A stretch of DNA of 64,000 bases from the IMG/VR virus record IMGVR_UViG_3300027418_000370. The stretch is one strand, 5' to 3'. A program made the translations under genes and the position numbers. The first letter of the stretch is position 1. Each line of letters opens with the position of its first letter. Origin of the DNA: a virus. The notes under the pieces are model-generated. The model was not told where the DNA came from and made no database searches. It saw nothing but the letters and a program-made list of their open reading frames with translations. Positions 6,749 to 25,316 of this stretch are shown here, in pieces.

Positions 6749-7573
6749 ATGGCAAAACACGTTGTTGTTAGTCTTTCAGGAGGGATGGACTCCTCTACGT
6801 TACTTCTAAAAGCTCTTAAAGAGTTTGATACAGTAACAGCAATGTCTTTTGATTACGGTCAAAAGCACAGAGTAGAGCTTGAAAGAGCTCAAGAGTTGGT
6901 AAAGTACTTGAGTGATAACGGTCACTCTGTTAATTACCGAGTAATCAAACTAGACGGCTTGGTTGACCTGCTCAACTCGGCTCTAGTAACAGGTGGTGCT
7001 GAAGTACCTGAAGGTCATTACGCAGAAGAGAATATGAAAGCTACTGTTGTACCGAACCGAAACAAAATCTTCAGTTCAATTTCTCAAGCTGTAGCACTTT
7101 CTATTGCAAATGAAACTCAGGAAGAAACTTCCATTGCGTTGGGCATTCATGCTGGTGATCATGCGATCTATCCGGACTGCCGACAGGAATTTCGGGATGC
7201 AGATGACGCTGCTTTCCGCACTGGTAACTGGGACGCTGAGCGCGTATCTTATTGGACTCCTTATCTTGAAGGCGATAAGTTTACTATTCTAGAAGACGGA
7301 CTGGTATTATGTGAGAAGCTAGGAATAGACTTTGATGAAGTTTATAAGCGTACTAACACCTCTTATAAGCCAATCAAGTACTATCACCGTCCAGAGACTA
7401 ATGCCTGGACTTGGTACTCAGACTACAAATCAGCTTCTTCAGTAGAGCGTATTGAAGCTTTTATTAAGCTAGGACGACCTGATCCTGTAGCGTACGCTGA
7501 TGAGACCGGCCCAGTGAGCTGGGAGGTAGCACGTGAGCATGTTGAAAAAGTTTTAGCAGCACACGCAAATTAA
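6749..7573 (+). CDS. queC: 7-cyano-7-deazaguanine synthase
   Basis: SGGMDS, FDYGQKH, VPNRN, HAGDHAIYPDCR. Confidence 0.96.
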   Translation: MAKHVVVSLSGGMDSSTLLLKALKEFDTVTAMSFDYGQKHRVELERAQELVKYLSDNGHSVNYRVIKLDGLVDLLNSALVTGGAEVPEGHYAEENMKATVVPNRNKIFSSISQAVALSIANETQEETSIALGIHAGDHAIYPDCRQEFRDADDAAFRTGNWDAERVSYWTPYLEGDKFTILEDGLVLCEKLGIDFDEVYKRTNTSYKPIKYYHRPETNAWTWYSDYKSASSVERIEAFIKLGRPDPVAYADETGPVSWEVAREHVEKVLAAHAN

Positions 7574-7576
7574 TTA

Positions 7577-7616
7577 GGGGGGAGCTTGTCTCCCTCCCTA
7601 TTTATTCTTATATTAA
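7577..7616 (+). terminator. Hairpin overlapping a promoter
   Basis: GGGGGGAG...CTCCCTCCC hairpin with embedded TTG-N20-TATATTAA. Confidence 0.5.
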
Positions 7617-7646
7617 GAGTGTCGGAGCACCACTATAAAAACACCG
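7617..7646 (+). promoter_or_regulatory. preQ1-I-like riboswitch aptamer (copy 2)
   Basis: AGTG-TCGGAGCAC-CACT-ATAAAAA-CACC; heads the unit containing queD/queE. Confidence 0.6.
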
Positions 7647-7647
7647 G

Positions 7648-8241
7648 ATGAAAAAGTTACTACTATTATTACCTCTGCTCTGGGCTTGTGAAACGATTGA
7701 GCCCTATGTTCCTGAACCTTGTCAGGAATGTACTACTATTCATAGAGTAGATACTATTCAACATCCTGGAACTTATTATCAAGACGGATACTGGCATTTA
7801 CAATATTCAGGTATAAATTACTTCCAGGTTATCGGTCAGTTAGATTCCCTACATCCTCAATATGTTATAAATGGAGTACCGCTACTTCAAGTAGTATATG
7901 ATAGCGATACCTGGTATGTATTTGATACCATTGCTATGCAAATACCTCTGTACTCTCCATTTACTTCCCAATATACTTCCCCAAGCTTTAATTACCCTAT
8001 CTCAACAGGAGATACTACAATCTATATTACAAATCCTAACTACATTATAAATGCAGTAGGTTATACGTTTGGAAGTACAAACTTTGTGAATGCTATGCAC
8101 ACATACCAGCCCCGGTGTGAAGTACTGGTGTTTGAAGAGATGGTGGGAGATACGATTAATGTCTTCACAAGAACGCGTTATAACTACGATCTAGGTACTC
8201 AGATAATAGTAAACGATACAATTAAAGTTATAGTAGAATGA
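7648..8241 (+). CDS. Lipoprotein
   Basis: MKKLLLLLPLLWAC lipobox. Confidence 0.75.
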   Translation: MKKLLLLLPLLWACETIEPYVPEPCQECTTIHRVDTIQHPGTYYQDGYWHLQYSGINYFQVIGQLDSLHPQYVINGVPLLQVVYDSDTWYVFDTIAMQIPLYSPFTSQYTSPSFNYPISTGDTTIYITNPNYIINAVGYTFGSTNFVNAMHTYQPRCEVLVFEEMVGDTINVFTRTRYNYDLGTQIIVNDTIKVIVE

Positions 8242-8444
8242 AAAAACAGTTATTAGTAGAGCCTGTTCTTCCGAAAAGTAAGAACATTGAAAAGATGCCT
8301 GATCAGAAATGGCATCAAATTATCTCATTTATTAAATCCGGAGTCCGTATTCTTGGTTACGCACTGCTTATTGTTGATATCCCAACAGCAATGGTGGTAC
8401 TGGTCTTGAGTGAGGCAGTCGGCATAATCGAAGAATTAGTATGA
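8238..8444 (+). CDS. Small membrane protein
   Basis: C-terminal hydrophobic hairpin ending GIIEELV. Confidence 0.65.
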   Translation: MKKQLLVEPVLPKSKNIEKMPDQKWHQIISFIKSGVRILGYALLIVDIPTAMVVLVLSEAVGIIEELV

Positions 8445-8701
8445 AGTATTTGTATTTCTCAGCACCTTGGTGCGGTCCTTGTAGAATGTTAGGTCCAACA
8501 ATGGAAAAAGTAGCAGCAGAAGGAATTGCTGTAGAAAAAATTAACATCGATACGGAAGAGCTCCTAACGATGGAATACACAGTCCGCAGTGTACCTACTG
8601 TAGTACTGATTGATGATTCTGGAAAAGAATTTGCTCGTACAGTTGGCGCTAAGCCATTAAGTCACTATATTGAACAATATAATAATTTTACAAATGTATA
8701 A
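8441..8701 (+). CDS. trxA: Thioredoxin
   Basis: WCGPC; VRSVPT cis-Pro motif. Confidence 0.9.
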   Translation: MKYLYFSAPWCGPCRMLGPTMEKVAAEGIAVEKINIDTEELLTMEYTVRSVPTVVLIDDSGKEFARTVGAKPLSHYIEQYNNFTNV

Positions 8702-9152
8702 GTCAAGAAAGAAGTTTGATGGCTTTAGTACTTGCTTCCGTCAATGGAAAGCGAATACTACACACTGTCAGTACCTACACGGCTATGATGTAGAGTTTGA
8801 AGTAACGTTTGAAGGAGATCTCGATCACCGTAACTGGGTATGGGACTTCGGAGGTATGAAGCGAGCTAAGAACCTGATCGACGGTATGCAACCTAAAGAA
8901 TGGATGGAGCATATGTTCGATCATACTGTAGTTGTAGCAGAAGACGATCCTGAACTAGATAACTTCAGAGATATGGCCGACAGAGGCGTTATTCAGTTAC
9001 GAGTAGTAGAGGCAGTAGGTGCAGAGAAATTTGCTGAATTTCTTTACCACAAGCTAAATGACTTCGTACAGACAGAGACAGACGGCCGAGTTAAGGTCAT
9101 TAAAGTTAAATTTATGGAGAACCACAAAAACTCAGCAATCTATGGCGCTTAA
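8694..9152 (+). CDS. queD: 6-carboxytetrahydropterin synthase
   Basis: C-x-x-LHGY, WVWDFG, FDH, AEKFA; que context. Confidence 0.9.
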   Translation: MYKSRKKFDGFSTCFRQWKANTTHCQYLHGYDVEFEVTFEGDLDHRNWVWDFGGMKRAKNLIDGMQPKEWMEHMFDHTVVVAEDDPELDNFRDMADRGVIQLRVVEAVGAEKFAEFLYHKLNDFVQTETDGRVKVIKVKFMENHKNSAIYGA

Positions 9153-9918
9153 GAGAATTGAAGATTATAATAAGGTACTGCCGATTGTAGAGCTTTACCG
9201 ATGTGTACAATCAGAGGGTAGTCGTTTTGGACGTCCTACTATCGCTGTACGTACTACAGGATGTACTCACCGCTGCTACTTCGGTGAAGGAGGTTGGTGT
9301 GATAGCTGGTATACCTCTATCCATCCAGAGAAAGGTGGTTATTCATTTAACGATATTATTAAGATTTACGATGAGAATCCTCACGTAAAGGAGATGATGC
9401 TAACAGGAGGTAGCCCAACAATGCACCCAGCCTTAGTAAATGAGATTACTCACTTTGCTAAAGAAAGAGGTATTATTGTTACTATTGAGACTGAAGGTTC
9501 TCACTTCCTTGAGACGGACTATCCTCTTGATCTTATCTCTCTATCTCCTAAGTTCTCTAATAGCGTACCCGTAGTAGGAGCTGTTACACCTCAAGGCGCT
9601 ATTGCAGATGAGAAGATGATTAAGCAACATAACAAGTTCCGTATCAACAAAGATGCTATCCGTCAGACTTTGGACTATCATACTGATTACCACTTTAAGC
9701 CGGTATGGGACGGTAGCGCAGCGAATCTAGTAGAGATTGAAGCATTTAGGGTTGAGATGAATATTCCTAAAGACAAGACTTTTGTTATGCCTGCAGGTGA
9801 TACTCGTGAGACTTTAATTGAAATGTACCCAATCGTATTTGAGATGTGTGCCGAGCACGGTTACAATATGACCGGACGTGATCACATCATTGCCTACGAT
9901 ACTAAGAGAGAAGTATAA
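9142..9918 (+). CDS. queE: 7-carboxy-7-deazaguanine synthase (radical SAM)
   Basis: QSEG..GRP..VRTTGCTHRC...WCDS, LTGG, IETEG, SLSPK. Confidence 0.93.
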   Translation: MALKRIEDYNKVLPIVELYRCVQSEGSRFGRPTIAVRTTGCTHRCYFGEGGWCDSWYTSIHPEKGGYSFNDIIKIYDENPHVKEMMLTGGSPTMHPALVNEITHFAKERGIIVTIETEGSHFLETDYPLDLISLSPKFSNSVPVVGAVTPQGAIADEKMIKQHNKFRINKDAIRQTLDYHTDYHFKPVWDGSAANLVEIEAFRVEMNIPKDKTFVMPAGDTRETLIEMYPIVFEMCAEHGYNMTGRDHIIAYDTKREV

Positions 9919-12495: not shown

Positions 12496-12985
12496 CGCAA
12501 AGGATATTGATATCCAAACTAAGATCATCGCTAAGAAGATCTCAGCAGAGCACAATGGAGATAAAACTCCAATCGTTATGGTAGGGTTATTGAATGGAGC
12601 ATTTATGTTCTATGCAGACCTAGTACGCAACATTACAGTAGACGTAGAATGTGATTTTATGAGAATAAGATCATACGTCAGTAAAAAGAAACAAGGTGAT
12701 ATTCAGATCACCAAAGACTTAGAGACGCCTGTTAAAGGAAAGCACGTCTATATCGTAGACGACATTTACGATTCGGGTAATACAATGGATGCTGTGATTG
12801 AATACCTTCAGGTCAAACACCCAGCCTCGATTAATATTGTTACTCTACTGACTAGAGAAACTTCTAGGATACCCCCAGTACCTTCCTATCATGCATTCAC
12901 TATCAAGGATGAATGGGTAGTAGGCTTTGGAATGGATAACGATAAAGGTTATGCAAGAAATTACAGAAGTGTGTTTGCACTCTGA
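12479..12985 (+). CDS. hpt: Hypoxanthine/guanine phosphoribosyltransferase
   Basis: GLLNGAFMF.ADL; PRPP motif IVDDIYDSGNT; WVVGFGMD. Confidence 0.9.
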   Translation: MQQLIDAKDIDIQTKIIAKKISAEHNGDKTPIVMVGLLNGAFMFYADLVRNITVDVECDFMRIRSYVSKKKQGDIQITKDLETPVKGKHVYIVDDIYDSGNTMDAVIEYLQVKHPASINIVTLLTRETSRIPPVPSYHAFTIKDEWVVGFGMDNDKGYARNYRSVFAL

Positions 12986-13008
12986 AATAGTTTTCGTATA
13001 TTAATAAG

Positions 13009-13038
13009 AGGTGTCGAAGCACCACCTAAAAAAACAAA
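13009..13038 (+). promoter_or_regulatory. preQ1-I (type II)-like riboswitch aptamer in the folE leader
   Basis: AGGTG-TCGAAGCAC-CACCT-AAAAAAA-CAAA; starts about 4 nt after the promoter element TATATTAA (12997-13004) and ends 4 nt before the folE ATG. Confidence 0.72.
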
Positions 13039-13042
13039 TTAT

Positions 13043-13753
13043 ATGGCAGATAAAAAACGTTATGATGTAGAACTCGCTCAAGCCGGGTTCGCTAATGGTG
13101 TCTCTTCTCAACTGGCTGAGAAGTTTAAAGTTCATTCTATGAACTCTATGCACTTAACAGATCAAGAGAAGCATACTATTATTGAGAATGCTGCAAAGGC
13201 ATTCGGAGAATTCCTAGATGCTCTAGGATGTGACTGGCGTGATGACCCTAACTCATCTGATACTCCTCGTCGAGTAGCTAAGGCTTATGTAAACGACTTA
13301 TGGGCAGGACGATTCAATCCTATGCCTGAGATCACAGCCTTCCCTGCTGATGGTTATGATGGTATTGTATTTGAGGGTAATATTCCTTTGACCTCGATGT
13401 GTTCGCATCACCACCAGACTATTCAAGGTCGAGTTCATATTGCTTACATTCCAGGTCCTGGAGGTAAGGTAATCGGTCTATCTAAGCTCAATCGTATTGT
13501 AGAGCATTTCGGACGTAGAGGTGCTATTCAAGAGCAGCTTACTGTTGCTATTCATAATGCAGTTCATACTGTTTGTGAAGGTAATGTAGGTGTAGCAGTT
13601 ATGGTAGAAGCTACTCACAATTGTGTATCATGCCGCGGTACTAAACACGCTGGTGCGTCAATGAAGACTTCTAAGCTATCAGGTAGCTTTATGTACGAAG
13701 ACTCAGCACGAGCAGAATTTTATGAATTTGTTAAAGGTTACGCATGCAAATGA
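13043..13753 (+). CDS. folE: GTP cyclohydrolase I
   Basis: DTPRRVAK, SMCSHH, GLSKLNR, QEQLT, HNCVSCRG. Confidence 0.97.
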   Translation: MADKKRYDVELAQAGFANGVSSQLAEKFKVHSMNSMHLTDQEKHTIIENAAKAFGEFLDALGCDWRDDPNSSDTPRRVAKAYVNDLWAGRFNPMPEITAFPADGYDGIVFEGNIPLTSMCSHHHQTIQGRVHIAYIPGPGGKVIGLSKLNRIVEHFGRRGAIQEQLTVAIHNAVHTVCEGNVGVAVMVEATHNCVSCRGTKHAGASMKTSKLSGSFMYEDSARAEFYEFVKGYACK

Positions 13754-14256
13754 AACGAGCAAAAAGTGTCCCATTTATCGACGAAGTAGAGATCTTCAAC
13801 GATACGTTCGGTAAGCCGAACAATTACACTCCTATTATTCCTAATGATAAGAAACTTACTAACTTCGTAGTAGATTTTATTAAAGAAGAGACTGACGAAC
13901 TAGCACACGCTATTGAAGAGAAAGATATTGTAGAAGTACTAGATGCTATCTGCGATCTACTTTACGTAGCTATTGGAAATGCTACCATGGTGTTTGGATT
14001 GAAGAATAAGATCGTACCAGCTTACCGAGAGGTACAGGCATCGAATATGTCTAAGAGCTGTGCGACTGTAGAAGAAGCAGAAGAGACTATTGCTCTCCGT
14101 TCTCAACAGCACGGCGAGTGTTACTTCCGTAAGGTGGGAAACCGTTATGTTGTTTATCGCAAAGCGGACGATAAGGTTATGAAATCTATTAACTACTTCG
14201 CTCCTAATCTTGAGCAGTTCTTTACTCCAGAAGAAATCGAAAACGCTAAGCAATGA
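13744..14256 (+). CDS. MazG/PRA-PH-like NTP pyrophosphatase
   Basis: EETDEL...EVLDAICDLLYV...VQASNMSK. Confidence 0.85.
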   Translation: MQMKRAKSVPFIDEVEIFNDTFGKPNNYTPIIPNDKKLTNFVVDFIKEETDELAHAIEEKDIVEVLDAICDLLYVAIGNATMVFGLKNKIVPAYREVQASNMSKSCATVEEAEETIALRSQQHGECYFRKVGNRYVVYRKADDKVMKSINYFAPNLEQFFTPEEIENAKQ

Positions 14257-14450
14257 GTCCAAAAGAACTGGTAGAACAAAATAGTATCTTCTTAGAAGAC
14301 CTACAACGCTGGGTTGTACCTTTAGAAGTAGTAGAGGAAGCCTTGCAGATCAAGAGCGCTAAAGAGCTTGAAGATAATTTAGGTAAACTTCAAGATAGTA
14401 TGTTAGAATTAAACAAGTTATTTAACGATTTAGGAAACGCCAATGGTTAA
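14253..14450 (+). CDS. Hypothetical protein
   Basis: Coupled ORF. Confidence 0.6.
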   Translation: MSPKELVEQNSIFLEDLQRWVVPLEVVEEALQIKSAKELEDNLGKLQDSMLELNKLFNDLGNANG

Positions 14451-15270
14451 GATTGCACACGAGAGTCCTATTGCTAGCTTTGACACTATTCAGCAGTATA
14501 CGGATTATGATTACGCTTTAGTACATCTCTTTGAAGAGAACGAAACTTATTTAGATAAGTTTGTAGAAGCACGAGATAAAGGACGAGAGATTATTCTCGA
14601 TAACTCTATCTTTGAATTAGGAAAAGCTTTTGATTCAGAACGCTTTGCTTTCTGGATTGATTATTTAAAGCCTACCTGGTACATCGTACCTGATGCATTA
14701 GAGAATGTAAAGCGTACTTGTGCTAATATGGCTGAGTGGAACTTTAAGTATGCAGATCATCTAGCAGCACCTAGTAAAAAGATTGGAGTACTACAGGGAA
14801 AGACTTACTCTGAGCTTATCAATTGCTATGACTACATGATTAATATAGCAAAGGTAGATATGGTGGCTATCTCTTTCGATTACAGTTATTACGAACAGCT
14901 CGTACCACACCCTAACAAGTATGTTAGCTGGATGCTAGGCAGAGTTGTGCTCTTAGGTAAGATGTTACGTGATGGAGTAATCAACCCAGATATCCCTCAC
15001 CACCTACTAGGCTGTGGACTTCCTCAAGAGTTTGCTTTCTATAAAGACTACGATTGGATCTACTCACTAGATACTTCTAACCCAGTAGTACACGGTTTGT
15101 TGGGAATCGAGTATAAAGATCAAGGGTTGTGGGATAAGGCATCAATCAAGTTATTTGAGATGATTAATATGACTCCTACCTCTGAGCAGGTTACTTCAGC
15201 AGTTTATAATGTTCAACGCTTTAGATGGTTCGCACATGGTAGCAACTCGTCCGTGGATAGCATTCTTTAG
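14443..15270 (+). CDS. dpdA: Divergent TGT-fold 7-deazaguanine transglycosylase (DpdA3-like)
   Basis: IILDNS, VPD, GVLQG, HHLLG, SLDTS motifs in TGT order; que context. Confidence 0.78.
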   Translation: MVKIAHESPIASFDTIQQYTDYDYALVHLFEENETYLDKFVEARDKGREIILDNSIFELGKAFDSERFAFWIDYLKPTWYIVPDALENVKRTCANMAEWNFKYADHLAAPSKKIGVLQGKTYSELINCYDYMINIAKVDMVAISFDYSYYEQLVPHPNKYVSWMLGRVVLLGKMLRDGVINPDIPHHLLGCGLPQEFAFYKDYDWIYSLDTSNPVVHGLLGIEYKDQGLWDKASIKLFEMINMTPTSEQVTSAVYNVQRFRWFAHGSNSSVDSIL

Positions 15271-15796
15271 TCAGACTGGATCTGAGATTGTTCAGGTTAG
15301 TAAGCAGTTAGGTCGCTGGCCTGACCTTATTATTACTAATATCAGGCCTTCTCATTTACGTACTATACATCCTGAGATTCCTACAGACCTATTAAAGTAT
15401 ACTCAGAATAGACCTGAGGAGCATGAGCTTGTATGGCTGATGAGTGCAATAAGTGATAACCCTGTTGTAACTTTACACGGATGGTTAAGAGTAATGCCTG
15501 CTTCTATCTGTAATCGCTATGAAATCTATAACGGACATCCAGGATTGATTACTAAATATCCAGACCTAAAAGGAAAAGATCCTCAATATAGAGCCTGGGA
15601 AGGTAACTATAAGACTGCTGGCTGTGTTATTCACAAAGTAACTGCCGGAGTAGATGAAGGAGAAGTTCTAGTGGAGCGAGAAAGTATACATAAGATGTTG
15701 CCTAAGAACGATATTTTTCGTATCTTACATGACACATCAGTAGAGATGTGGATAGAATTTTTACATAATAAACTATGGTTAGACGAATTGCATTAG
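15236..15796 (+). CDS. dpdN: PurN-like formyltransferase (DpdN-like, preQ1 formylation)
   Basis: FSQTGS, LHGWLRV, NGHPGL, GCVIHKVTAGVDEG; lies between dpdA and queF. Confidence 0.8.
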   Translation: MVATRPWIAFFSQTGSEIVQVSKQLGRWPDLIITNIRPSHLRTIHPEIPTDLLKYTQNRPEEHELVWLMSAISDNPVVTLHGWLRVMPASICNRYEIYNGHPGLITKYPDLKGKDPQYRAWEGNYKTAGCVIHKVTAGVDEGEVLVERESIHKMLPKNDIFRILHDTSVEMWIEFLHNKLWLDELH

Positions 15797-16293
15797 TAGG
15801 AGCTAGTAGTACTGGTAAGACTACTGTGTATGAGTTATTGAAAGCTAAACTACCTAAGTATGAGTTTATTAACGAAAGTACTCGTACGGTAGCTAAGTTT
15901 GGCTTTCCTATTAACGAAGCAGGTACTACTGAGACTCAGTTAGCTATTTCTTCTTTTCACTTAGAGGCTTTGCTTAAGCCTCATAGTTTGATTCTAGATC
16001 GTTGTTATCTAGACTTAGTTGTATACTCTAAGCATATGCCTGCTTTATCTTCTCAAGGCTTAGACTTTATTGAAGATACTTGGACTAGAGTGCAGGATGA
16101 GTATACGCACTATATTTATTTCCCTATTGAATTCGATGCTGTGGATGATGGTCAGCGCAGTGTAGATGAAGCTTGGAGAAAGATTATTGATGAAGAGTTT
16201 AAGTATCAACTCGATTTAACTGACCGTCATTATTTAACTGTTACTGGCTCACCATTGCAGCGAGTAGATCAAATTTTAAAATACATAAAGTAA
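15775..16293 (+). CDS. P-loop (d)NMP kinase-like protein (AAA_28/NadR-like)
   Basis: GASSTGKTT, E..R, LDRC..D..VY, DDGQR. Confidence 0.8.
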   Translation: MVRRIALVGASSTGKTTVYELLKAKLPKYEFINESTRTVAKFGFPINEAGTTETQLAISSFHLEALLKPHSLILDRCYLDLVVYSKHMPALSSQGLDFIEDTWTRVQDEYTHYIYFPIEFDAVDDGQRSVDEAWRKIIDEEFKYQLDLTDRHYLTVTGSPLQRVDQILKYIK

Positions 16294-17208
16294 ATGGAAG
16301 AAGTAAAGAACTACAATGCAGTCGTTGAGATTGCTGGTAAACACCTCGGTAAGGTAGGTGGAGAAGGTTACTCAGATCAGTACAATGCTGAGTTGCTAGT
16401 AGCAGTACCTCGTTATTTAAACCGAGAAGCTTACGGAATTGAGGAGAGTAATCTTCCATTCGTAGGAGTAGATGCTTGGAACGCTTATGAAGTTTCAGCT
16501 ATTACTAAAAAAGGTCAGCCTGTAGCAGGTATGTTAAAGATTGTATGCCCAGCTAATACAGAGTTTCACGTTGAGTCAAAGTCTATCAAATTATACTTGA
16601 ACTCTTTGAATATGACTCCGATGGGTCAGACAGCTAAGGAGTGTATCAAGGAGATTGAAACAACAGTAGCTAAAGACCTAACTGACCTACTAGGAGGAAA
16701 TGTAACCTGTACCTTCTTCGGCAATACATACACTCCAGAGTTTGAGTTTGATGGCTTTACAGACTTAGGTGCAACAGTAAACCTTGACAACATTGAGTTT
16801 ACAGCCTTTAAGTCTGATGCAGGTCAGCTTGAGATTGGCGGCAATCTTCCAATGTCTGTTACAACTAAAGTAAGTTCTAACTTGCTACGTAGTAACTGCC
16901 GAGTAACTAACCAGCCTGACTGGGGTGATATCTACATCCATATGCAAGGTCATAACTCAATTAAGCTTGAGTCACTAGCCAAGTATATCGTTAGTCACCG
17001 TACAGTATCTCACTTCCATGAAGAGATCTGTGAGATGGTATTTACTCACCTTCAGCAAGCCTATCAACCTGAGAAGCTTATGGTAGCATGTTTATATACA
17101 CGTCGTGGTGGATTGGATATTAATCCTATTCGAGCTACACATAAAGATATGATCCCAGGATGGTTTACTGATTCGGGTAAACGAATGAGAAAAACTTTAC
17201 GTCAATAA
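16294..17208 (+). CDS. queF: NADPH-dependent preQ0 reductase, bimodular type
   Basis: VESKSIKLYLNS, LLRSNCRVTNQPDW, FHEEICE, YTRRGGLDINP. Confidence 0.96.
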   Translation: MEEVKNYNAVVEIAGKHLGKVGGEGYSDQYNAELLVAVPRYLNREAYGIEESNLPFVGVDAWNAYEVSAITKKGQPVAGMLKIVCPANTEFHVESKSIKLYLNSLNMTPMGQTAKECIKEIETTVAKDLTDLLGGNVTCTFFGNTYTPEFEFDGFTDLGATVNLDNIEFTAFKSDAGQLEIGGNLPMSVTTKVSSNLLRSNCRVTNQPDWGDIYIHMQGHNSIKLESLAKYIVSHRTVSHFHEEICEMVFTHLQQAYQPEKLMVACLYTRRGGLDINPIRATHKDMIPGWFTDSGKRMRKTLRQ

Positions 17209-24099: not shown

Positions 24100-24185
24100 G
24101 CTACTGTGGTGAAATAGGTAGACACGAGGGACTTAAAATCCCTTGGCCAGTGATGGTCGTGCCGGTTCGATTCCGGCCAGTAGTA
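24100..24185 (+). tRNA. tRNA-Leu(TAA)
   Basis: GCTACTG/CAGTAGT acceptor, anticodon loop CTTAAAA, long variable arm, GTTCGATTC. Confidence 0.93.
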
Positions 24186-24231
24186 CACGGAAACCCATAT
24201 ACGGTTCTTTGACATGTTGGATAGATAGAAT

Positions 24232-24313
24232 GCGGATGTGGTGTAATTGGTAGCCACGCCAGACTTAGGATCTGGTGCTTAATCGCGTGGGGGTTCGAGT
24301 CCCTTCATCCGCA
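24232..24313 (+). tRNA. tRNA-Leu(TAG)
   Basis: GCGGATG/CATCCGC; CCAGA-CTTAGGA-TCTGG; GTTCGAGTCC. Confidence 0.93.
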
Positions 24314-24319
24314 CATAAT

Positions 24320-24422
24320 GAGAGGAGGAAAAGGTAAAATCCAAAGGTACGGTCGACGGGTCGTTTAAAACCTGAGGTACGGACTCTGATGCTGTAAGCG
24401 CGCTAAAGGAGTGAAGCCTCTC
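24320..24422 (+). ncRNA. Unassigned structured RNA between tRNAs
   Basis: GAGAGG/CCTCTC closing stem with internal hairpins. Confidence 0.4.
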
Positions 24423-24430
24423 TATAATAT

Positions 24431-24504
24431 GGTCCGATAGCTCAGCTGGATAGAGCAACAGCCTTCTAAGCTGTCGGTCGAAGGTTCGAATCCTTCTCGG
24501 ATCA
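24431..24504 (+). tRNA. tRNA-Arg(TCT)
   Basis: GGTCCGA/TCGGATC; ACAGC-CTTCTAA-GCTGT; GTTCGAATCC. Confidence 0.95.
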
Positions 24505-24596
24505 CTACGCAGTCAGATGCATCTGGTTTCTCTATTCCATTTAAAGATAGAGTGGAGCTACAGTGGCAGGTTATGGTTGTCCTCTAACAACCAGCT

Positions 24597-24669
24597 CGGG
24601 ATGTGGCGCAAGTGGTAGCGCACCTGGTTTGGGACCAGGGGGTTGGAGGTTCGAGTCCTGTCATCCCGA
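24597..24669 (+). tRNA. tRNA-Pro(TGG)
   Basis: CGGGATG/CATCCCG; CCTGG-TTTGGGA-CCAGG; one T-stem mismatch. Confidence 0.92.
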
Positions 24670-24691
24670 CTAATTATTAAATGTTTTAAAC

Positions 24692-24856
24692 ATGAAAACA
24701 ATCATTAAGTACTTCTTTCCGGTAATGTACCTGCTTTACATTGTAGGTATTGGTTTAAACGTATCAGTTGGCGACTATTCAGATGCTGGCTGGATCTTCA
24801 GCGCACTACTCTGGATGTTTAACTACCATATGCTTTACCTAAAGATTACTAAATAA
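24692..24856 (+). CDS. 54-aa membrane protein inside the tRNA array (not in ORF track)
   Basis: MKTIIKYFFPVMYLLYIVGIGLNV...; two hydrophobic helices. Confidence 0.6.
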   Translation: MKTIIKYFFPVMYLLYIVGIGLNVSVGDYSDAGWIFSALLWMFNYHMLYLKITK

Positions 24857-24985
24857 AGAACCCAGACGTGTGCAAAGAGACTGAGTCTAGCCTCTAAATC
24901 CACTTCGGTGGTTGACTTTCGGGAAAAGATAGTGAGTGGGGAGTACGCCTACCGGACGGCGTCTCATTGATAACCTCCCCTATAA

Positions 24986-25058
24986 GCCTCCTTAGCTCAG
25001 TTGGTAGAGCCACTGATTTGTAATCAGTAGGTCGTTGGTTCGAGTCCGACAGGAGGCT
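24986..25058 (+). tRNA. tRNA-Thr(TGT)
   Basis: GCCTCCT/AGGAGGC; CTGA-TTTGTAA-TCAG; GTTCGAGTC. Confidence 0.95.
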
Positions 25059-25061
25059 CAG

Positions 25062-25146
25062 AGAGTAGGACTAATAGTTCAGCATACCGCTGCAGCGGTA
25101 AAAGTAAGTTGCTGTTAATAGGACGCCGAATCCTAACGCCTATTCT
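25062..25146 (+). ncRNA. Unassigned multi-stem RNA between tRNA-Thr and tRNA-Tyr
   Basis: AGAGTAGG/CCTATTCT, CAGCA/TGCTG, TACCGC/GCGGTA and TAGGA/TCCTA stems. Confidence 0.5.
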
Positions 25147-25153
25147 TTTTTAC

Positions 25154-25236
25154 TGGAAGGTGGGTGAGTGGTTAAAACCGGCAGACTGTAAATCTGCTCC
25201 CTTACGGGTACGGCAGTTCGAATCTGTCCCTTCCAA
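25154..25236 (+). tRNA. tRNA-Tyr(GTA)
   Basis: TGGAAGG/CCTTCCA; GCAGA-CTGTAAA-TCTGC; long variable arm. Confidence 0.9.
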
Positions 25237-25242
25237 CAAATT

Positions 25243-25316
25243 GCGCTTATAGCTCAGTTGGTTAGAGCATCCGACTCATAATCGGCAGGTCCTAGGTTCA
25301 AACCCTAGTAGGCGCA
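25243..25316 (+). tRNA. tRNA-CAT (probably Ile2/lysidine type; Met possible)
   Basis: GCGCTTA/TAGGCGC; CCGA-CTCATAA-TCGG. Confidence 0.9.

Follow-up and report, generated by a model that had tools for sequence, protein, structure and literature searches.

A putative shortened preQ1-I type II-like riboswitch in front of folE and of a queD/queE unit in a phage 7-deazaguanine DNA modification cluster

Introduction

Class I type II preQ1 riboswitches, known from T. tengcongensis and from B. subtilis queC and represented in Rfam by family RF00522, have an H-type design with a short P1 stem and are located in the leaders of preQ1-pathway genes, where they chiefly govern queT transporters (PMC11625349). 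In class I aptamers, preQ1 is contacted by G5, U6, the specificity cytidine and the adenine preceding the C of the tail (PMC8752633). An "AC" directly before the 3′ strand of P1 is a hallmark of type II (PMC11625349), whereas type I members carry "UC" at this place, a CUA tail and two stacked ligands. Class I knots act by direct occlusion, and attenuation is possible even when they stand apart from the ribosome binding site (RBS) (PMC10907184); the small type I knot of Carnobacterium antarcticum attenuates translation even with the RBS moved away (PMC10907184, PMC8752633). The latter case provides a precedent for regulation without burying of a Shine-Dalgarno (SD) sequence.

Riboswitches of other kinds occur in phages, e.g. 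c-di-GMP-I riboswitches in a Clostridioides phage and glutamine riboswitches in cyanophages. To our knowledge, none of the known phage riboswitches governs the synthesis of a DNA hypermodification. The DNA of phage immuto_2-6A contains formyl-preQ1 (fdPreQ1) in place of every G, and the paper on the responsible gene cluster makes no mention of a riboswitch, of regulation or of a promoter (bioRxiv 10.1101/2023.04.13.536721). Likewise, phages are not mentioned in a 2024 review of the preQ1 family. An earlier annotation of the DNA analyzed here, made from its letters alone (the sequence-only reading), had proposed a preQ1-I-like riboswitch in front of a phage folE gene and stated that no description of riboswitch control of phage DNA modification was known to it. 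In the open-access literature, to which our survey was limited, no preQ1 or other riboswitch was found for phage 7-deazaguanine clusters, in agreement with that statement. A preQ1 riboswitch was also considered for Streptococcus phage Dp-1, but its que cluster gave no Rfam riboswitch match.

Genetic organization of the modification cluster

The analyzed DNA (the window; 64,000 nt) makes up the 3′-terminal 64 kb of an IMG/VR virus record of 124,656 b. Pfam matches and identity to the immuto proteins revealed that it contains a full fdPreQ1-type cluster, encoding FolE, QueD, QueE, QueC, QueF, DpdA3 and the DpdN formyltransferase. The folE gene (13043–13753, + strand) encodes a 236-aa protein matching GTP_cyclohydroI (Pfam, 1.6e-43) and opens a unit (13043–17208) with the gene order folE-mazG-orf65-dpdA-dpdN-AAA kinase-queF, while queC is located at 6749–7573.

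Another unit (7648–9918, + strand), assigned by Pfam and, for its 68-aa ORF, by small-protein homology, contains a 197-aa lipoprotein-like ORF, a 68-aa small membrane ORF (8238–8444), a thioredoxin gene and genes for QueD/PTPS (8670–9152) and the radical-SAM protein QueE (9058–9918). Genes for a ferredoxin, ThyX, a nuclease, a thioesterase and a phosphoribosyltransferase lie between the queE and folE units. The cluster of immuto_2-6A has the same genes in the same order (folE, mazG-like, dpdA3, dpdN, kinase-like, queF; queC, queD and queE nearby), with 59–75% protein identity; the DpdA and DpdN proteins of the window are 65% and 59% identical, respectively, to DpdA3 and DpdN of this phage. The phage is of Flavobacterium type, and the hosts are inferred to be Bacteroidota. 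Seven tRNA genes (Rfam tRNA, 55–71 bits) are clustered on the + strand at 24100–25316.

The folE leader

The letters given for the motif by the sequence-only reading, AGGUG-UCGAAGCAC-CACCU-A7-CAAA, were confirmed by direct inspection at 13009–13038, in front of the folE ATG at 13043. The 5′ strand of the P1 stem occupies 13009–13013 (+ strand, as all parts of this copy); A13009 is optional, GGUG (13010–13013) forms the core, and G13013 is the equivalent of G5 in the T. tengcongensis (Tte) aptamer. The loop UCGAAGCAC (13014–13022), delimited from the sequence and from alignment A1, is composed of U6-C7 (L1), G8-A9-A10-G11 (5′ side of P2) and C12-A13 (L2), followed by C13022, the putative specificity base.

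The 3′ strand of P1, CACC(U), is located at 13023–13027 and is followed by an A-rich tail (L3) of seven A residues (13028–13034) and by CAAA (13035–13038), the putative 3′ strand of P2, in which the C and the next A show little or no variation. Pairing of C13035 with G13019 would putatively correspond to the G11-C30 pair of Tte. Only UUAU (13039–13042) separates CAAA from the initiation codon.

A consensus scan identified a promoter-like site, TTTGCA-17-TATATT (12974–13002, + strand), ending 6 nt 5′ of A13009. This position makes a transcript start at the motif plausible; no 5′ end has been measured. The TATATT(A) box is kept 5′ of the motif in relatives, at variable spacing, as seen in the alignment of folE leaders.

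The second copy

The core pattern GTCGNAGNNCCNNNNNAAAA has two exact occurrences in the window (7621 and 13013), compared to 0.27 expected, and no further good copy of the motif was found in the whole 124,656-b record. The second copy (7618–7645, + strand) consists of AGUG (7618–7621), the loop UCGGAGCAC (7622–7630), CACU (7631–7634), AUAAAAA (7635–7641) and CACC (7642–7645). It precedes the ATG at 7648 and heads the lipoprotein/small-ORF/trx/queD/queE unit.

Directly after queC lies a terminator-like GC hairpin of 8 pairs (7577–7597, + strand), followed by the promoter-like boxes TATTTATT and TATATT (7599–7614, + strand). As no more than 3 nt separate the TATATT box from the stem of the second copy, the upstream box TATTTATT is more likely to be the promoter element at this site.

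Conservation and covariation of the motif

The leaders of 80 IMG/VR loci, collected by FolE similarity, were read without any structural filter, and in approximately one third of these loci the same element was found directly before the ATG. Its stem occurs in five complementary versions (GGUG/CACC, GGAG/CUCC, AGUG/CACU, UGAG/CUCA and UGUG/CACA), and the loop UCG-N-AG-NN-C and tail WWAAAAA-C-A are kept. Related phages thus keep the motif 5′ of folE while its stem undergoes compensatory changes, so that the covariation check proposed along with the riboswitch assignment came out in its favor.

In an alignment of 66 distinct sequences, one of the two variable P1 pairs was AU in 43, GC in 14 and UA in 9 sequences and the other UA in 55 and AU in 11, and the observed stem covariation score was reached by no shuffle. 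This alignment was chosen for pairing, and the independent evidence of covariation is therefore that of the folE-anchored set. The sequence-only reading had described a P1 stem of 5 bp. All five pairs can form in the window, but only four are kept across the family (66/66 sequences, with an invariant G-C pair at the top), whereas the fifth position is unpaired in 58/66 and the A13009-U13027 pair is specific to a sub-clade.

In 70 sequences (alignment A1), U6, G8, A10, G11 and the final C of the loop are invariant; the specificity C is present in 70/70 and is preceded by A in 68/70. C7 of L1 is at least 90% conserved, with one lineage carrying UUG and another an extra U. Counted from the 4-bp stem, the L3 tail is 7 nt long in 60/70 sequences and reads WWAAAAA before C-A. 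In addition, loop position N12 was observed to be C with xGUG stems (53/57) and A with xGAG stems (12/12), which may reflect either lineage or a tertiary contact.

This strong conservation is also compatible with the possibility that the element is an operator for a phage or host RNA-binding protein, or a 5′ stabilizing hairpin, which co-ordinates the timing or level of expression of the two deazaguanine units. The loop is very strongly conserved in sequence and so, in the queD type, is the stem, whose near-invariant AGUG/CACU would fit a sequence-specific site; moreover, the element is very small, thermodynamically weak and without a significant match to any Rfam family. However, free covariation of the stem, as observed in the folE type, would be unusual if a protein recognized the site by its sequence, and the conserved bases correspond one for one to those of the ligand pocket of a riboswitch, the ligand being the product of exactly these genes. 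Nor do these phages carry the motif in front of their remaining early or middle genes, and no co-occurring RNA-binding protein was seen. An operator or stabilizing hairpin is consequently regarded as unlikely.

Genomic association

A pattern scan of the whole IMG/VR collection with two stem pairs left free gave at least 133 matches. Among the matches listed, 118 have paired stems, and 110 of these directly precede the genes for FolE (43), a small membrane protein (58), QueD (3), QueE (3) or a lipoprotein-type ORF (3). Wherever the downstream DNA of the matches listed was sufficient, queD and/or queE followed the small-protein and lipoprotein ORFs; behind the small membrane protein, QueD and/or QueE is encoded no more than about 900 nt away, in most cases QueD at a distance of up to about 500 nt.

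Eight paired matches of those listed remain. In two of them, which have a TGGG/CCCA stem, the gene that follows is GH19-like, and the remaining six are without a called ORF of at least 40 aa; some of the six are found at contig ends before folE-like starts and others in unrelated contexts. The 15 unpaired matches listed are in unrelated contexts as well. The two motif-like matches near the GH19-like gene, which is chitinase-class-I-like (endolysin-like), were observed in loci L118 (− strand) and L123 (+ strand): the hairpin UGGG-UCGUAGAAC-CCCA, with an A-tract and no C after the tract, lies approximately 40 nt before the gene and is probably a chance occurrence or a decayed copy.

A covariance model (R1) built from the motif alignment matched the window at the two motif sites only (41.2 and 41.0 bits), the next best score being 12 bits; the second copy (41.0 bits) was among the input sequences of the model. 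In 397 kb of folE loci, R1 gave 23 matches, all of them at folE or small-protein/queD leaders, and no match had an E value between 0.005 and 1. The lowest score (31 bits) was that of a folE-type copy in locus L040 (2950–2990). Its loop reads UCGAAGUUC and its tail terminates in CGGAG, so that it contains a GGAG resembling the SD sequence of bacterial type II members.

The idea that the leader is merely a chance hairpin before an A-rich leader of Bacteroidota type, to which the Rfam E value of 2.7 (see below) and the prevalence of A-rich leaders in these genomes might be thought to point, is hardly credible in the face of these data: two copies are present where 0.27 are expected, and dozens of distinct conserved copies with compensatory changes are found only before folE or queD/queE units, so that the comparative evidence already refutes it. 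The leaders are a conserved phage-borne cis-regulatory RNA.

Comparison with preQ1-I riboswitches

The bases that the sequence-only reading had listed as keys of a type II aptamer, i.e. G5, U6/C7/G8, G11, the specificity C, the A-rich tail and its C, are indeed present and, together with A10 and the A of the "AC", are invariant or nearly so in the 70 sequences. The phage motif and the class I type II riboswitches share the H-type design with a short P1 and the location in leaders of preQ1-pathway genes, and the "AC" before the 3′ strand of P1 assigns the motif to the side of type II rather than type I.

Two of the Clostridia members retrieved with RF00522 are of the T. tengcongensis type: CCGGG-UCGCAGCUAC-CCCGG-UUAAAAAAACAAGG (tail also as UUAAAAAAACAAGGAGG) and GGCGG-UCGCAGAAAC-CCGCC-UAAAAAAACAAGG (tail also as UAAAAAAACAAGGGGG), the latter with the loop UCGCAG-AAA-C. 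The loop UCG-N-AG and the tail (U)A6-7-CAA of these clostridial members are nearly identical to those of the phage motif; AGGUG-UCGAAGCAC-CACCU-AAAAAAACAAAUU shares with them the closing G-C pair, U6-C7-G8, A10-G11, A-C, the A-tract and C-A-A.

There are also clear differences. The loop had been described as one base shorter than in type II, and this holds against the clostridial members, in which L2 is 4 nt long compared to 3 nt in the phage motif; in type II as a whole, L2 has 4–6 nt including the specificity C. P1 is usually of 4 bp in the phage family and of 5 bp in type II. The GG of type II that forms the SD sequence and the C9-G33 pair is missing in the phage motif, which has neither a terminator nor an SD sequence (except for the GGAG in L040). 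The motif occurs in phage DNA of Bacteroidota type and not in the bacterial genomes searched, and it precedes folE and queD/queE units for DNA modification, in contrast to the queT transporters that are the chief targets of type II (PMC11625349).

An Infernal search with the Rfam PreQ1 model (RF00522), suggested in the sequence-only reading, placed its best match in the genome at the folE site, but with a score no better than noise (9.8 bits and E 2.7, against a gathering score of 39); judged by Rfam alone, the site does not stand out from chance. Rfam cmscan gave no PreQ1 match with the window at the gathering threshold or with 151 nt at E≤10. RF00522 scores in five relatives were 9–12 bits, compared to 28–53 bits for bona fide clostridial members. 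Conversely, when R1 was applied to 13 clostridial preQ1-I loci, both type II-like members were missed. Homology to RF00522 at the profile level is therefore not claimed, as neither profile recognizes members of the other.

It is possible, though unlikely, that the elements form a phage-only class, derived from or converged on preQ1-I, with a pocket remodeled (short L2, 4-bp P1) for a phage-specific deazapurine such as free formyl-preQ1 or for a pathway intermediate and hiding an SD-less, A-rich initiation region. Such a class, if real, would sense a metabolite solely for the purpose of DNA hypermodification, and its expression platform would be one undescribed for riboswitches in the literature examined.

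Distribution

The folE-type motif is carried by the cultured phage immuto_2-6A (locus L003, 6013–6047; R1 score 47.6 bits); no second copy was found in the 12.8 kb of this phage that were examined. When loci were anchored on QueD, the motif was present within 2.5 kb in only 5/80 and a loose descriptor retrieved nothing convincing from the remaining ones, and on the strength of the former count the motif is restricted to one clade. When 185,579 species genomes were scanned for the exact pattern, six stretches matched, of which only one was genuine, a phage-like 5.9-kb MAG contig with both copies. R1 found no match in 151 Flavobacteriaceae genomes, an empty answer that shows little by itself, and BLAST of the queD-type motif against cultured phages returned only noise.

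Every motif-bearing locus with enough sequence encodes QueF and/or a DpdN-type formyltransferase, indicative of a preQ1-making pathway. Some phages with the same operon, including QueF+DpdN clusters, are devoid of the motif. Cellulophaga phages phiST and phi13:1, which have dDG derived from CDG as their DNA base, lack the motif (bioRxiv 10.1101/2023.04.13.536721). Two arrangements were observed among the folE loci without motif (L022–L085): a large related group with the order folE-queD-queE-trx-PRTase behind a TTTG ... TATATTA promoter with no hairpin, and another group with dpdA-queF-formyltransferase-kinase-folE, in which folE is internal to the unit. The existence of close relatives without the motif indicates that the switch is dispensable there or has been replaced by something else.

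Pseudoknot and alternative folds

G11 and the C of the tail are invariant in the 70 sequences and hence cannot covary. The equivalent of the C9-G33 pair would join N9 to the base three positions 3′ of the tail C (C+3) and is possible in 52/70 sequences, compared to 46.4 in shuffles (P 0.02, uncorrected for relatedness or for the six offsets), and the four sequences with G9 face C or U at this position (4/4). In the window, A is opposite A (unpaired) in the folE copy, while G9 (7625) of the second copy is able to pair with C7645. The P2 pseudoknot is therefore inferred and plausible, but unproven.

The leaders fold only weakly on their own, as expected for the preQ1-I class. For the folE copy, ViennaRNA favored a shifted hairpin, GGUGU-CGAA-GCACC (−6.2 kcal/mol); in both copies GUG(U) of the stem can pair with (G)CAC of the loop to give a shifted tetraloop hairpin (13010–13023 and 7619–7630). 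The shifted GGUGU/GCACC pairing was rejected as the conserved structure, since stems of the GAG type cannot form it, although it could contribute to the ligand-free state in the lineage of the folE copy.

Proposed mechanism and ligand

The distance between the tail C and the AUG is mostly 5–8 nt, whereas that between the promoter box and the stem ranges from 3 to 20 nt. This combination of a tight and a loose spacing suggests that the element functions as part of the mRNA, where translation is initiated. Wiring as an ON switch or through a terminator was rejected: with 5–8 nt between the tail C and the AUG and weakly folded leaders, no room or structure for it was seen, and the two copies of the window, being of one architecture, gave no evidence of ON wiring. 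In Bacteroidetes, mRNAs lack SD sequences, and both the structure of the leader and adenines located upstream tune initiation (PMC6847099). As initiation in Bacteroidota does without an SD sequence and needs an unstructured A-rich region, a folded knot at this place would be expected to block 30S loading.

The motif, its conservation, the covariation of its stem, its gene association and its site next to the AUG are direct observations. The reading that we prefer, with a probability of roughly 0.7, is that the element is a shortened preQ1-I type II-like riboswitch which represses translation and thereby exerts feedback on DNA hypermodification; the ligand, the pseudoknot, the sign of regulation and the action on translation are all inferred.

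The most economical model is that of an OFF switch, in which both leaders would adopt a small H-type pseudoknot with a P1 of 4–5 bp, U-C as L1 and G11 paired with the C after the A-tract, in which the specificity C of the "AC" would serve as Watson-Crick partner of the ligand and the A-rich tail would lie in the groove of P1. Accumulation of the free 7-deazaguanine base of the phage would lock the knot, which would then span approximately −35 to −5 relative to the AUG. With the A-rich initiation region withdrawn into the P1 groove, 30S loading would be blocked, and less FolE and less of the first cistron of the queD/queE unit would be translated. Presumably, the pathway that consumes GTP and provides the base for full replacement of G in fdPreQ1-type DNA would in this way come under feedback control.

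As ligand, preQ1 is the most likely candidate, since no other free base follows it before insertion by DpdA; preQ0 is not excluded, and there are no binding data. The same fold might also sense another compound of the pathway, its shortened L2 accommodating, for example, free formyl-preQ1, CDG or a pterin formed between the FolE and QueD steps, and would then represent a new specificity within the preQ1-I architecture. An L2 one base shorter than in type II members would agree with this, as would the final DNA base of the cultured relative, which is fdPreQ1 and not preQ1 (bioRxiv 10.1101/2023.04.13.536721), and the fact that the motif has so far been seen only with DpdN-type clusters. This last association does not discriminate between the ligands, however, given that QueF+DpdN clusters without the motif exist. 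Furthermore, DpdN may act on DNA, in which case there would be no free formyl-preQ1, and all four α-site contacts for a guanine-like 7-deazapurine are invariant, including the Watson-Crick C and the G5 that contacts the aminomethyl group (PMC8752633). A ligand other than preQ1 or preQ0 is thus considered improbable.

If confirmed, the preQ1-I type II-like reading would provide a riboswitch that regulates the synthesis of a DNA hypermodification and not of tRNA queuosine, and would mean that phages carry their own metabolite sensing, balancing a pathway that replaces every guanine. The smallest known riboswitch fold would then exist in an even smaller version and would extend to translation that ignores SD sequences, offering a clean test of how a compact knot blocks initiation by itself. 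The question is directly testable, as a cultured pair is available (vB_FspM_immuto_2-6A and Flavobacterium sp. LMO8) and 35-nt RNAs are easily synthesized. The motif also constitutes a practical marker of preQ1-type DNA modification clusters in viromes, one that is missed by Rfam-based annotation.

Proteins encoded downstream of the queD-type motif

In the window, the ORF directly behind the second copy, i.e. between it and the small ORF (7648–8241), encodes a 197-aa protein with a lipoprotein-type signal, MKKLLLLLPLLWAC. It has no family match and was seen only in the window and a few relatives (L099, L119 and L177).

The first cistron behind the queD-type motif, whose AGUG/CACU stem is almost invariant, is in 58 of the matches listed a gene for a small protein of 61–107 aa, for example in L111 (6973–7176, − strand) and L122 (4131–4454, − strand). 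These proteins gave no Pfam or PHROG match. They have a variable N-terminus, the conserved stretch PD(P/A)K(L/K)HQxxSFxKSxIRxxGY and a hydrophobic C-terminus with the end SE(V/I)xGIIEELV, and their genes are usually followed by queD and/or queE. The 68-aa ORF of the window (8238–8444) encodes a homolog of this family.
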